Below are positions 5,081 to 63,387 of a stretch of 64,000 bases of DNA, in pieces. Origin of the DNA: Patescibacteria group bacterium (GTDB lineage Bacteria; Patescibacteriota; Minisyncoccia; UBA6257; HR35); contig JAUQQM010000001.1 of NCBI GenBank assembly GCA_030549895.1, positions 117,624-181,623 of the forward strand. Reading direction: 5' to 3'. Within the stretch, counting starts at the first letter, position 1. Each line of letters begins with the position of its first letter. The translations under genes were made by a program, and so were the position numbers. A model generated the notes under the pieces. The model worked only from the letters and a program-made list of their open reading frames with translations. It was not told the DNA's origin and made no database searches.

Positions 5081-6115
5081 TTATTGATTCTTAAATTCCT
5101 CAAGTAATTTTTTAAGATCTTTTGGAATTTTTGGAAATTGAGGTTCAAGATAGACAAGTAAATCTCCTCTACCAGATTTTGTTGGAAAGCCATAATTTTT
5201 AATTATTATAGGGTTTGAAATTGAAGTTTCTGGATCAATTTTATATTTTATTGTGCTTCCTTCAAGAGTAGGTATTTCTATTTCTCCCCCAAACCAAATT
5301 TTAAGAATATTAACCTTTACTTTTGTTTTTAAATCTCTACCTACTTTTTCAAAAATATCATCTTTTTTTAGTTTTATTCTTATTAAAAGATCTCCTGGTG
5401 GAGCTCCTTTTGGTCCAGCATCACCTTCGCCAATAAATTTTACTATACTTTCTTCTTCTACACCTGGAGGGATTTGGAGTTTTAGGGGTGTGATCTTTTT
5501 TACTATTCCCCGACCTTGGCATTTTGGACAGTAAGTTTCAGGTATTTTTCCACTCCCCTCGCATATTGGGCAGGTTGTTATTTGGGTCAGAGAACCAAAA
5601 ATAAATGATTTTACCTCTTTAATTTTTCCGCTTCCATTACATTTTGTACAAATTTTGTATTTTCCTTCTTTTGCTCCAGTTCCTTGGCAGTCAGGACAGA
5701 TAACGAATCTTTCAATATTTATTGTTTTTTCTGTTCCAAAAGCAGCTTCTTTAAGAGTAAGGTAAAGTTCTACATTTATATTTCCTCCTTTTTCTTTTTG
5801 TGGCTTTTTCTTAAATCCAAAAAGATTTTCAAATATCTCATCTAATCCTAAAGTAGAGAAATCCTCAAAGAAGCTATCAAAAAAGTCTGTACCAATAGTT
5901 CCCGGAGAAAAACCGAATCTTCTTTGTTGATCATACATTGCTCTTTTTCTTTTATCAGAAAGAACTTGATAAGCTTCGTTTATTTTTTTGAATTTTTCAG
6001 CATCTCCTGTAGGAGAGTCTGGGTGGTATTTTTTTGCTAAACGCCAAAAAGCTTTTTTTATTTCTTCTTCACTAGCATCAGGTGGCACTCCTAATATTTC
6101 ATAATAATCTTCCAT
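5081..6115 (-). CDS. dnaJ: Chaperone DnaJ (type I, four CxxCxGxG zinc-finger repeats)
   Basis: It has a J domain with the HPD tripeptide (KKYHPD) and four zinc repeats ([32 protein letters not shown]). Confidence 0.9.
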
Positions 6116-6122
6116 AAAATAT

Positions 6123-6130
6123 ATTATAAT
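6123..6130. promoter_or_regulatory. Overlapping back-to-back -10 boxes for dnaJ (minus strand, 6123-6128) and tRNA-Val (plus strand, 6125-6130)
   Basis: The sequence ATTATAAT reads as TATAAT on both strands. It lies 7 nt from the dnaJ ATG (6115) and 7 nt from the tRNA 5' end (6138). Confidence 0.5.
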
Positions 6131-6137
6131 TTAACTT

Positions 6138-6210
6138 GGGTGGTTAGCTCAATTGGTAGAGCACTGGCGTCACATGCCAGGGGTTAGAGGTTCAAGTCCT
6201 CTACCACCCA
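6138..6210 (+). tRNA. tRNA-Val (anticodon CAC)
   Basis: I folded the cloverleaf by hand. The acceptor is GGGTGGT/ACCACCC, the D loop contains GG, the anticodon loop is GTCACAT and the T loop is TTCAAGT. Length is 73 nt with no encoded CCA. Confidence 0.85.
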
Positions 6211-6292
6211 CACAAATTTTATAGTATAATTAAATATAATTACTCCTTTTGGACTTTGACTTTCTAAAAGATTAGAGGATTTTAATTATTTA

Positions 6293-6311: not shown

Positions 6312-6719
6312 ATGCCAACAATAAATCAATTAGTCAGAAAAGGAAGAGAGAAAATTAAAAAGAAATCAAAAGCAGTAGCCCTTCTTTATCATTACAATAG
6401 CCTTAAAAAAAAGCTTTATTATCTACCTTCACCTTTTAAAAGAGGGGTTTGTGTTAGGGTTTATACAACAACTCCCAAAAAACCAAATTCAGCCTTAAGA
6501 AAAGTTGCTCGTGTAAGACTTTCAAATGGTTTTGAAGTAACAGCTTATATTCCTGGCGAGGGGCATAATTTACAAGAACATTCAATTGTTCTTGTTCGTG
6601 GAGGAAGAGTTAAAGATCTTCCAGGAGTAAGATATCACATTGTAAGAGGTGTTTATGATACAAGTGGTGTTGAAGGTAGAAAACAACAAAGATCAAAATA
6701 TGGTGTTAAAAAAGGATAA
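6312..6719 (+). CDS. rpsL: 30S ribosomal protein S12
   Basis: It is near-identical to the conserved S12 core ([42 protein letters not shown]). It carries roughly 10 extra residues near the N-terminus relative to E. coli S12. Confidence 0.95.
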
Positions 6720-6721
6720 AT

Positions 6722-7195
6722 ATGCCTAGGAAAAAGAGAAAAATTGAAAAAAGAGAAATTATACCTGATCCAGTTTTCAATAGCATTTATGTGACAAAGT
6801 TTATAAATTACTTAATGAAGGATGGTAAAAAAATGCTTGCTCAAAAAATATTTTATAAAGCTATGGAAAGGGTTAAAGAATTATCTGGTAAAGATCCATT
6901 AGAAGTTTTTAATACTGCTATTAAAAACTGCTCACCAGCTATGGAAGTTAGAGCTCGTCGTGTTGGTGGTGCTACTTATTTAGTACCCAGAGAAGTAAGA
7001 GTAAAAAGAAAATTTTTTTTAGCTTCCAAATGGATTATTGAAAGTGCTCGATCAAGAAAAGGAAAGCCAATGTTTGAAAAACTTGCTGAAGAATTTATTC
7101 AAGCCTTCAATCTTGAAGGTGAGGCAGTAAAAAAGAGAAAGGAATTAGAAAAAACAGCAGAAGCCAATAAAGCTTTTGCTCATTTTAACTGGTAA
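6722..7195 (+). CDS. rpsG: 30S ribosomal protein S7
   Basis: The S7 core is present (RRVGGATYLVP.EV, ANKAFAHF..W), and it sits in the str-operon position after rpsL. Confidence 0.95.
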   Translation: MPRKKRKIEKREIIPDPVFNSIYVTKFINYLMKDGKKMLAQKIFYKAMERVKELSGKDPLEVFNTAIKNCSPAMEVRARRVGGATYLVPREVRVKRKFFLASKWIIESARSRKGKPMFEKLAEEFIQAFNLEGEAVKKRKELEKTAEANKAFAHFNW

Positions 7196-7196
7196 A

Positions 7197-7267
7197 GGCG
7201 GGGTGGTGGAGTAGTACCACGCAGGTCTCATAAGCCTGAGACGCAGGTGCAAATCCTGCCCCCGCAA
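7197..7267 (+). tRNA. tRNA-Met (anticodon CAU), initiator-like, with an atypical D and T loop
   Basis: It aligns by eye to E. coli tRNA-fMet. Its acceptor is GGCGGGG...CCCCGCA-A with a 1:72 mismatch and its anticodon loop is CTCATAA. The D loop AGTAGTA lacks GG and the T loop is TGCAAAT rather than TTCAAAT. Confidence 0.65.
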
Positions 7268-7285
7268 CAAGTCTTTAAAGCTATC

Positions 7286-9391
7286 ATGAGAATTGTACCA
7301 TTAGAAAAATTAAGAAATATTGGAATAATAGCCCATATTGATGCAGGGAAAACTACAGTTACTGAAAGAATTCTTTATTATACTGGCCTTAAACATAAAA
7401 TTGGTGAAGTTCATGAAGGTGAAGCTACAATGGACTGGATGGTGCAAGAAAAAGAAAGAGGTATAACTATTACTGCTGCCTCTACTACTTGTTTTTGGTC
7501 TCAGACTTATAAACAATCAAAAGAAAAAGAATTTCAAATTAACATTATTGATACTCCTGGTCATATTGATTTTACAGCTGAGGTTGAAAGATCTTTAAGA
7601 GTTCTTGATGGGGCTGTTGTTGTTTTTGATGGTGTAGCTGGTGTAGAACCACAATCAGAAACTGTTTGGAGACAGGCAGATAAATACCGCGTTCCTAGAA
7701 TTTGTTTTATTAACAAACTTGATAGACTTGGTGCTGATTTTGATTTTGCTCTTAGCACTATTTGGAAAAAATTAACAGATAAAGCAATTGCTCTTCAAAT
7801 GCCAGTTGGTAAAGAGAGTGATTTTTGGGCAATAATAGATTTAATTCAGATGAAAATGTTTTCTTTTGAAGGGAAATACGGCGAAGAAATTAAAGTCCAT
7901 GAAATTCCTCAAGATCTTTTTCAAGAAGCTCAAGAGAAAAGACAATTTCTTTTAGAGAAAGTTGCTGAAAATGATGAAATTTTTATGGAAAAATTCTTTA
8001 GTGAAAGTTTTAATGAGCAAGATATAAGAGAAGCTATAAGAAGACAAACTTTAAACTATAATTTAGTTCCTGTTTTTCTTGGTTCAGCCCTGAAAAACAA
8101 AGGAATTCAATTACTTTTGGATGGTATTGTTGACTATCTTCCTTCACCCCTTGACCTTGGAACTATAAAAGGAGAGCATTTAAAAACAAAAGAAAAAATT
8201 GAAATTAAATTAAACGATGAAGAGCCGCTTACAGCTTTAGTTTTTAAAATAATGGTTGATCCTTATGTTGGAACATTAAGCTATATTAGAATTTACTCAG
8301 GAATTCTTAAAAGAGGTCAAACTGTTTTAAATGTAAGTAAAAATGAGGAAATAAGAATTGGAAGAATTGTAAGAATGCATGCTAACTTTAAAGAGGAGGT
8401 AGAAGAGCTTCATTCTGGTGATATTGGAGCTGTTGTTGGTCTTAAAAATTCTTCAACCGGTGATACTCTTTCTGATCCAAAGTTTCCAATTTTATTAGAA
8501 AAAATTCAATTTGCTGAACCAGTTATCTCTATGAAGATAGAGCCAAAAACAAAAGCTGATCAAGAAAAACTTGGTCTTGCTCTTAATGCTTTAGTTAATG
8601 AAGATCCTACCTTTAGAGTAACTCACAATCAAGAAACAATGGAAACTATAATTTCAGGTATGGGTGAGCTTCACCTTGAAATTAAAGTTGATCGTTTAAA
8701 AAGAGAATTTGGAATTGATGTTAACGTTGGCAAACCCCAAGTAGCTTATCGAGAAACTATCACCAAGACTGCCGAGGCAGAAGGAAAATATATTAGACAG
8801 TCTGGCGGAAGAGGACAGTACGGTCATGTCTGGCTAAGGGTAGAGCCACTTGAAAGGGGTAAACATTTTGAGTTTGTCAATGCCATAAAAGGAGGAATTA
8901 TACCCGATGAGTTTATACCAGCGATAGAAAAAGGAGTAAGAGAAGCTATGGAAAAAGGAGTATTAGCTGGTTTTCCTATATCTGATATAAGGGTGACAGT
9001 TTTTGATGGATCATTTCATGAAGTTGATTCTTCTGATTTTGCTTTTAGAATAGCTGGAGCGATTGCTCTTCAAGAAGCAGTAAAAAAAGCTGGTCTTGTT
9101 ATGTTAGAGCCAATTATGAAAATTTTCATCTATACTCCAGATGAATATTTAGGGGATGTAACTGGTGATTTTCTTTCTCGAAGAGGAAAAATAGAAAATA
9201 TAGAAACTCGTGAGAGTATTAAAATTATTGAAGGCTTAGTTCCTTTAGCCGAGATGTTTGGTTATGCTACTAGAATAAGATCTATAACTCAAGGAAGAGG
9301 TTTTTATAATATGGAGTTTTCTCATTATGACTTTGTTCCTCAAAATATTCAAAATGCTCTTATTGAAGAAAGAGTTGCGGCAAGGAAATAA
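7286..9391 (+). CDS. fusA: Elongation factor G
   Basis: It has a G domain ([21 protein letters not shown]) and full EF-G domain architecture. I moved the start to the ATG at 7286 because the track start at 7247 overlaps the tRNA. Confidence 0.95.
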
Positions 9392-62481: not shown

Positions 62482-63387
62482 TTATATCGTTGAAAAAACC
62501 CTATAAACTGGATCTGGTTTTTGAAAAACAATGTCTATTTTAGTTATACTTGAAAGTGAGGGAGCAAATTTAAACTGATCTATGATTTTCTCTATCAAAT
62601 TTTCCTTTCCTTGTAAAATTACTTCAACAGTACCATCAGGGAGGTTTTTAGCATAGCCAACTATTTTGAATGAGTCAGCCAAATTTTTTATAAAATTTCT
62701 CATACCAACACCTTGAACCCTTCCATAAAGCCTTATTTTTGCTTCTAGGAAATTTTTTTGAAAGTCTTCAAGAGTAAGCGATTTTTCAACTGTAAATGGA
62801 CCAACTCTTTTTCTTAAAAGTTTAGCAAGATAAGCACCAGTTCCTATAGCCTTTCCAAAATCATGAGCAAAAGATCTTACATAAAAACCAGCACTGCTTA
62901 CAATATTGAAAACTACATATGGCCAATTGTAAGAGACAAGCTCTATTTTTTTAACCAAAACTTTCCTTGATTTTAAAATTATTTCTTTTCCTTCTCTAGC
63001 GTACTTGTAAGCTGGTTTTCCTTTTATTTTTACAGCGCTATAGATAGGTGGAACTTGTTCAATTACACCCCTAAATTTTTGCATAGTTTCAATAATTTCG
63101 TCTTCTTTTGGGATTTTTTCAAAATTTACTTTCACAATTGGCCCCTCAGAGTCAAATGTTTCACTTACCTTTCCTAACTCTAAAGTTGCTAAGTATTCTT
63201 TTTCCATTTCTTTTATTTCATTTTGGTCTTTAGTGTATTCATCAAATAAAATTATAAGAACTCCTTCTGCTAAAGGATCTAAAGTACCACCATGACCTAC
63301 TTTTTTATTGTAGGATTTCCTAAAAAAATCTACAATTTCAGCCGATGTTTTTTTAATTGGCTTGTAAAAATTTAGAATTCCTCTCAT
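62482..63387 (-). CDS. truB: tRNA pseudouridine-55 synthase TruB fused to a C-terminal acylphosphatase-like domain
   Basis: The TruB catalytic core is present ([17 protein letters not shown]). The C-terminal ~88 aa carry [12 protein letters not shown]..., the acylphosphatase signature, instead of a PUA domain. Confidence 0.75.

Follow-up and report, generated by a model that had tools for sequence, protein, structure and literature searches.

A probable initiator tRNA with A18-G55 in place of the G18-Psi55 elbow pair in a Patescibacteria group bacterium

In reviews, Psi55 is presented as universally conserved, and the contact G18-Psi55 is counted among the features of the conserved tRNA corner (PMC4810234, PMC7912444). 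In that corner G18 intercalates between residues 57 and 58 and bonds the "universally conserved" Psi55 (PMC4810234), which is the most universally conserved of all tRNA modifications (PMC7912444). The cytoplasmic initiator tRNA of eukaryotes has a T-loop variant of its own, A54, as one review relays from its source (PMC7912444, citing Basavappa and Sigler 1991), and mammalian mitochondrial tRNAs (PMC2777451) and tRNA-Pyl (PMC1851642) are off the G18-G19/T-Psi-C consensus yet functional. T-loop modules are also found outside tRNA; in these, position 2 is typically a G whose backbone contacts stabilise the turn, position 3 forms an outward pair, and the partner strand contributes an intercalating base (PMC6158498).

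The tRNA gene treated here comes from a Patescibacteria group bacterium whose assembly (G000) has 470,788 bp in 8 contigs, about 29% G+C and 88% completeness. We analysed a stretch of 64,000 nucleotides of it, called the window below. Our reading, to which we give a probability of roughly 85%, is that the gene at 7197-7267 encodes the organism's functional initiator tRNA, likely its sole one, and that the inner elbow contact G18-Psi55 is replaced there by A18-G55. The gene, its parts and its neighbours are:

6138-6211, + strand: tRNA-Val(CAC) with a canonical elbow, upstream of rpsL (ARAGORN, Rfam)
6312-6719, + strand: rpsL, ribosomal protein S12 (Pfam PF00164, 130.9 bits)
6722-7195, + strand: rpsG, ribosomal protein S7 (Pfam PF00177, Ribosomal_S7, 193.2 bits)
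7197-7267, + strand: initiator-type tRNA(CAU), of the tRNA-fMet type, 71 nt to the discriminator A73 (ARAGORN, Rfam tRNA)
7197-7203, + strand: acceptor 5' strand GGCGGGG, its G1 facing A72 (7266) as a mismatch
7210-7216, + strand: D loop AGUAGUA, numbered A14, G15, U16, A18 (7213), G19 (7214), U20, A21
7229-7231, + strand: anticodon CAU, in the loop CUCAUAA (7227-7233)
7248-7254, + strand: T loop UGCAAAU, with U54 (7248), G55 (7249), C56 (7250), A57 and A58 (7252)
7286-9391, + strand: fusA, EF-G (Pfam GTP_EFTU, EFG_III, EFG_IV, EFG_C)

An initial annotation, made from the sequence, had called this gene an initiator-like tRNA with an odd elbow between rpsG and fusA, and had proposed that it be scored with a tRNA finder. 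ARAGORN calls a tRNA with anticodon CAU at 7197-7268, and the Rfam model RF00005 matches 7197-7267 with 58.1 bits, where the gathering score is 29. Together with the Pfam hits these calls confirm the placement, with 1 nt between the rpsG stop and the tRNA and 18 nt between A73 and the fusA ATG (7286). The acceptor 3' strand CCCCGCA is followed by A73 and then by CAA, the gene encoding no CCA. Further inward are U8 and G9, a D stem GUGG/CCAC, G26, an anticodon stem CAGGU/GCCUG (pairs G29:C41, G30:C40 and U31-G39), a variable loop AGAC of 4 nt, and a T stem GCAGG/CCUGC. The features that had been picked out by eye, namely the acceptor end, G1 opposite A72, the CUCAUAA loop and the T loop with G at 7249 (position 55), are all present as read.

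One part of the elbow had been read differently. With D-loop numbering set by alignment to E. coli metY and to relatives of the U55 type, only half of the claimed loss of G18-G19 stands: position 18 is A (7213), and G19 is retained at 7214 and is invariant. A canonical elbow comprises the outer pair G19:C56, the reverse-Hoogsteen pair U54-A58 and a G18 that contacts U55 or Psi55, and the first two are found here but the third is not. The exchange is thus limited to the 18/55 pair, from G18-U55 to A18-G55, with G19:C56 kept. In a gap-free alignment of 28 distinct initiator sequences from the window's family and its sister families, G19/C56 and U54/A58 are invariant (28/28), and a purine at 57 is likewise kept.

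The same tRNA occurs in 23 of the 24 genomes of the family, at 87-97% identity. All 28 aligned sequences have their D, anticodon and T stems fully paired; 12 pairs are changed on both sides (95 cells), values reached in 0 of 500 shuffles, and sliding the stem partners abolishes the pairing signal. An independent RNAalifold run returned the cloverleaf. When the single sequence is folded, the minimum-energy structure is a rod of -33.3 kcal/mol, 3.5 better than the cloverleaf at -29.8; it arises from pairing of GGUCUC (7224-7229) with GAGACG (7238-7243, the last pair being U-G). Non-cloverleaf minimum-energy folds are common for unmodified tRNA sequences, and the rod is not supported by the alignment.

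An assembly in eight pieces and 88% complete, in which this tRNA scores below four of the six other tRNAs of the window with Rfam, could raise the suspicion of a sequencing or assembly error, or of a decaying pseudogene with a canonical initiator elsewhere. G55 together with A18 recurs, however, in those 23 family genomes and in more than 100 other assemblies, which excludes an assembly error at 7249 and upholds the early judgement that the letters are no random error; the stems, moreover, are all kept through compensatory changes. On this conservation we judge the gene to be neither an error nor a pseudogene. The census of CAU tRNAs bears on the same point. There are 41 tRNAs in G000, two of them with CAU: the window's tRNA and a canonical elongator-type tRNA-Met on contig 1; the other 40 all combine a D-loop GG with a T-loop GTTCRA. 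A closed genome of the same family (G008; 634,165 bp; 43 tRNAs covering all 20 amino acids) also has two, a canonical elongator and the orthologue of the window's tRNA, which alone among the 43 has the odd elbow. A canonical initiator elsewhere, for which a search had been advised, is absent from the closed G008 census, where this tRNA is the only initiator candidate, and a pattern combining a U55 T arm with an initiator acceptor end found no U55-type initiator in five near-complete family genomes, two of them closed. Error or decay is left with next to no chance. As G000 is incomplete, it is the relatives that support the presence of a single initiator.

For the initiator identity itself we compared the tRNA with E. 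coli metY, which was taken by its coordinates and then aligned, a blastn search of E. coli genomes with the window's tRNA having returned no match. Acceptor positions 2-7 and 66-73 and the whole anticodon loop, CAU included (ARAGORN), are identical. The 1:72 pair is not Watson-Crick (G1/A72), as is usual for an initiator; across the 28 distinct sequences it is unpaired in 23 (C, A or G opposite A) and U:A in 5. A72 is invariant, and position 1 is C, A or U in the relatives sampled and G only in the window's tRNA (7197). The determinants of the E. coli formylase, G2:C71, C3:G70 and A73, are present and invariant in 28/28, from which the tRNA is predicted to be formylated. Two other initiator marks are missing. 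In place of three G:C pairs at 29:41, 30:40 and 31:39, the family has G:C, G:C and U-G, and the sister families A:U, G:C and G:C; some natural initiators of mycoplasmas have only two of the three. A11:U24, found in the sister families (12/28 sequences), is U11:A24 in the window's family (15/28). The metY alignment and the census in G000 and G008 nevertheless agree with the initiator assignment first made by inspection.

The anticodon CAU by itself would fit equally a tRNA-Ile2, whose CAU is converted to carry lysidine, or a second elongator tRNA-Met, and U11:A24 and the incomplete run of G:C pairs are elongator-like. Several observations contradict this. A tRNA-Ile(UAU) serving AUA codons is encoded both in G000 (contig C3, 22005-22077, - strand, outside the window) and in G008; TilS (PF01171) was not found in G000, and no tRNA-Ile2(CAU) was found there; the role of elongator tRNA-Met is already filled by another, canonical gene; in its acceptor stem, 1:72 mismatch, A73 and anticodon loop this tRNA agrees with E. 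coli tRNA-fMet; and the closed G008 would otherwise be left with no initiator. We consider either elongator assignment very improbable and retain the initiator reading.

The genes fmt and def were also not found in G000 (88% complete). Since they are neighbours in 23 of 24 relatives, one gap in the assembly would account for the absence of the two, and initiation without formylation in this organism was rejected as an explanation. The tRNAs tRNA-Asn, tRNA-Tyr, tRNA-Thr(UGU) and tRNA-Val(UAC) are likewise missing from G000. All of these are present in G008 or elsewhere in the family, which makes the absences assembly gaps and not losses.

The link between positions 18 and 55 was followed through the order by two pattern searches, GTGCRA for G55 and GTTCRA for U55, from which 64 distinct initiators were parsed. 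All 41 G55 initiators have A18-G19 and all 23 U55 initiators have G18-G19, and the D loops come in counterparts for G55 and U55: AGTAGTA and AGTGGTA, AACAGTT and AACGGTT, AACAGTA and AACGGTA. In public genomes, A18 accompanies G55 in 107 of the 108 parsed G55 initiators among the matches listed. The proposal that both partners had changed together, and that an alignment of orthologous loci would reveal covariation, is therefore upheld across the order.

A G55 initiator is detected by the strict pattern in 81 of 401 genomes of the order, with strong differences by family: 20/24 in the window's family (f1), 12/20 in f4, 15/27 in f21 and 0/42 in f14. Among 101 genomes considered under both patterns, 24 matched G55 only, 41 matched U55 only and none matched both; the other 36 matched neither, because of variants, introns or gaps. 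Both states occur within seven families (f6, f7, f17, f22, f23, f24 and f29) and within one genus, g38, whose two tRNAs differ at 4 of 72 positions, 18 and 55 among them. These mixed families and the near-identical pair point to a swap that arose repeatedly by double substitutions in place.

Such a distribution, patchy by family, might also result from horizontal replacement of the initiator gene, for instance from phage-borne initiator-like tRNAs, and the differing loci of the gene among family members would fit. Public G55 records among the matches listed come mostly from Parcubacteria/Paceibacterota, Saccharibacteria and Microgenomates-type bins, with a few labelled Proteobacteria or other phyla, and G55 initiator-like tRNAs, almost always with A18-G19, are found on at least 120 IMG/VR contigs filed as viral (L260-L379), some of them longer than 300 kb. 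Some of the contigs called viral may, however, be misassigned CPR DNA. Close relatives of opposite state share idiosyncratic tRNA backgrounds, as in the g38 pair with its four differences, and AACGGTT/AACAGTT and AGTGGTA/AGTAGTA are found on otherwise alike tRNAs, which fits point substitutions. We regard replacement from outside as improbable and favour repeated substitution in place.

Some of the initiators collected are peculiar in other ways: (i) L141, from a bin labelled Chthoniobacter flavus (CAMAUX010000033.1), has the D loop AGCCUGGUA (G18-G19) together with the T loop UGCAAAU (G55) and is otherwise E. coli-like; it is the only G18/G55 combination among the matches listed and may be an intermediate state or an error. 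(ii) G1 is commoner among the matches listed in viral-filed contigs (15/119) than in cellular genomes (1/108). (iii) In several relatives the initiator is interrupted just before anticodon C34; in L060 (1571-1758, - strand) the insert is a group I intron (RF00028, 57.9 bits), and the junction ...GTAGTGGTAWG followed by CATAA recurs in L058, L075, L092, L102, L119, L139, L205, L217, L219 and L229, with both G55 and U55 initiators affected. (iv) Many CPR initiators (L023, L026, L034 and others) have the anticodon loop CCCAUAA with C33, which amounts to 23 of 108 initiators of the global sample among the matches listed; the window's tRNA has U33. U33 is nearly universal in tRNAs, and vertebrate cytoplasmic initiators have the same CCCAUAA loop.

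The enzyme that makes Psi55 is encoded within the window, near its other end, and had also been singled out as atypical:

62482-63387, - strand: TruB, pseudouridine-55 synthase, with a C-terminal acylphosphatase domain (TruB_N, 159.6 bits)

Pfam supports this description: TruB_N is followed by a partial TruB_C_2 and an acylphosphatase domain (PF00708, 63.9 bits), with no PUA domain; the catalytic GGTLDP motif is present. In the usual TruB architecture a PUA domain takes the place of the acylphosphatase. The suggested tie between the unusual enzyme and the unusual elbow, by contrast, was not upheld. The fusion accompanies G55 initiators (the window's family, G083) as well as U55 initiators (G031, G087, G033), these four genomes outside the window's family belonging to a few other families of the order; a short TruB stands alongside G55 initiators in G075, G061, G104 and G027; and TruB_N (PF01509) is found in 36 of 99 order genomes at least 90% complete, in both initiator types, and in 14/14 control genomes. 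In G000 itself TruB is present and the other 40 tRNAs keep U55. Since the fusion and the presence of TruB do not follow initiator type, we rejected TruB as part of the elbow mechanism and treat it as context. Many bacteria of this CPR order may have no pseudouridine-55 synthase at all.

How might the exchanged pair be accommodated? By its letters, U-G-C-A-A with A18 and G19 fits the published five-nucleotide T-loop scheme, in which positions 1 and 5 pair and a base inserts between positions 4 and 5, and from this fit we infer that the loop takes the general T-loop form common outside tRNA and that the L shape is kept. A18 would then do the work of G18 by intercalating between 57 and 58, and RNase P, uL5 and the L1 stalk would still meet an L-shaped tRNA with the flat G19:C56 face that they use. 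Having A18 and G55, the tRNA cannot act as a substrate for TruB and can carry neither Psi55 nor Gm18. The strict covariation argues that A18 and G55 still touch, in a geometry suggested by that covariation and by analogy with other T loops; the residues of a lost contact would vary freely.

The opposite possibility is that the inner contact is simply lost, giving a loose, mitochondrial-like tRNA, a loss made tolerable by direct entry into the P site. Reduced genomes often loosen the tertiary structure of their tRNAs, and the lack of TruB in some two thirds of the order's high-quality genomes suggests a relaxed position 55. Against this, the association of 18 with 55 is complete in the order (64/64 distinct sequences) and holds globally in all but one of the 108 matches listed, the two residues are fixed as A and G and not free, and G19:C56, U54-A58 and purine 57 are invariant. 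A lost contact is in our view quite improbable, and a kept A18-G55 contact remains the preferred reading.

Why the exchange should affect the initiator can be approached in two ways. Since EF-Tu never carries it through the A site, the initiator is perhaps less constrained; another possibility is that the swap adjusts a step for which P-site tRNA-fMet needs its 18-55 pair. The first translocation reportedly depends on this pair, as is said of work by Pan et al. in 2006. We offer tentatively, as an unlikely idea, that the A18-G55 elbow is no neutral equivalent but serves these bacteria as a mark of the initiator. It might set the initiator apart from all elongators, by analogy with A54 in eukaryotes; it might adjust the first translocation, by which the tRNA leaves the P site; or it might protect the start tRNA from factors that recognise or cleave the T-Psi-C loop. 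If true, such immunity would also explain the same elbow on many phage-borne initiator-like tRNAs.

The position of the gene within the str genes had been noted as unusual. Among the loci fetched around the tRNA, the order rpsL-rpsG-tRNA-fusA is shared by one other family member, G011, where the tRNA follows rpsG by about 80 nt; in the remaining family loci the tRNA is elsewhere, often near tRNA-Asp. The placement is therefore a recent local rearrangement and does not characterise tRNAs of this type. At 6098-6127 a promoter-like site is proposed from a consensus match, and no such site was found between rpsL and the tRNA; tRNA-Val(CAC) is possibly the first gene of the same transcription unit as rpsL-rpsG-tRNA(CAU)-fusA. 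A terminator-like hairpin at 7156-7180, inside rpsG, was not taken for a real terminator, as one such site is expected by chance. The tRNA is probably transcribed together with tRNA-Val, rpsL, rpsG and fusA, and RNase P and a 3' endonuclease would free it from the transcript before the addition of CCA. RNase P, whose RNA is present, would cut 1 nt past the rpsG stop codon, and after 3' processing fusA would keep no more than 18 nt of leader.

No description of an A18/G55 elbow was found in the literature searched (A18-G55, U55G, G55 in tRNA, Patescibacteria/CPR). Two matches for U55G concern, to judge by their subject, apparently engineered mutants, and a T-loop review of 2021 mentions neither G55 nor A18. 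The present case adds a swap confined to the initiator across a whole family, a closed-genome census, mutual exclusivity with U55 initiators, a switch within one genus, and a negative result for TruB. It would mean that an essential tRNA of a whole bacterial family uses another, strictly covarying elbow pair: a natural second solution for the tRNA elbow, open to tests of structure and kinetics, and a natural double mutant with which to probe the role of the 18-55 pair in initiation and the first translocation. It also illustrates that the lack of Psi55 in a tRNA can be normal rather than defective, and is a warning that annotation pipelines might score such genes as pseudogenes.

One close counterpart among known systems is E. 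coli tRNA-fMet (metY, NC_000913.3 3318213-3318289). The two share CAU in a CUCAUAA loop, acceptor positions 2-7 and 66-72 with A73, a 1:72 pair that is not Watson-Crick, G19, C56, U54 and A58, and all T-loop letters except position 55. The window's tRNA differs in having G1 not C1, a D loop 2 nt shorter, A18 not G18, G55 not U55, U:A not A:U at 11:24, U-G not G:C at 31:39, a variable loop of 4 nt, and no encoded CCA. In its setting it recalls the thrU-tyrU-glyT-thrT-tufB operon of E. coli, whose tRNA genes are co-transcribed with the translation gene tufB; there too, tRNAs lie inside a translation-factor operon and are excised from the transcript, whereas here an initiator tRNA stands between rpsG and fusA, 1 nt past a stop codon.

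With its A54, the eukaryotic initiator provides a precedent for a T loop or elbow unlike that of every elongator in the same cell. The change is similarly confined to the initiator here (1 of 43 tRNAs in G008), although it affects position 54 there and positions 18 and 55 here, in another domain of life. For the loop itself a parallel is the J1/3-J6/3 T loop of class II cobalamin riboswitches, where the G at position 2 enforces the turn, C3 pairs with a partner-strand G, position 4 is a purine, and the partner strand also supplies an intercalating base (PMC6158498). The tRNA loop U-G-C-A-A with A18 and G19 matches that scheme in sequence, in a tRNA and not a riboswitch, and the intercalating base is most often U in the riboswitch. 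Mitochondrial tRNAs and tRNA-Pyl, finally, have several elbow contacts lost or reshuffled; unlike them, the initiator described here exchanges one pair, with strict covariation, and keeps the remainder of the elbow canonical.
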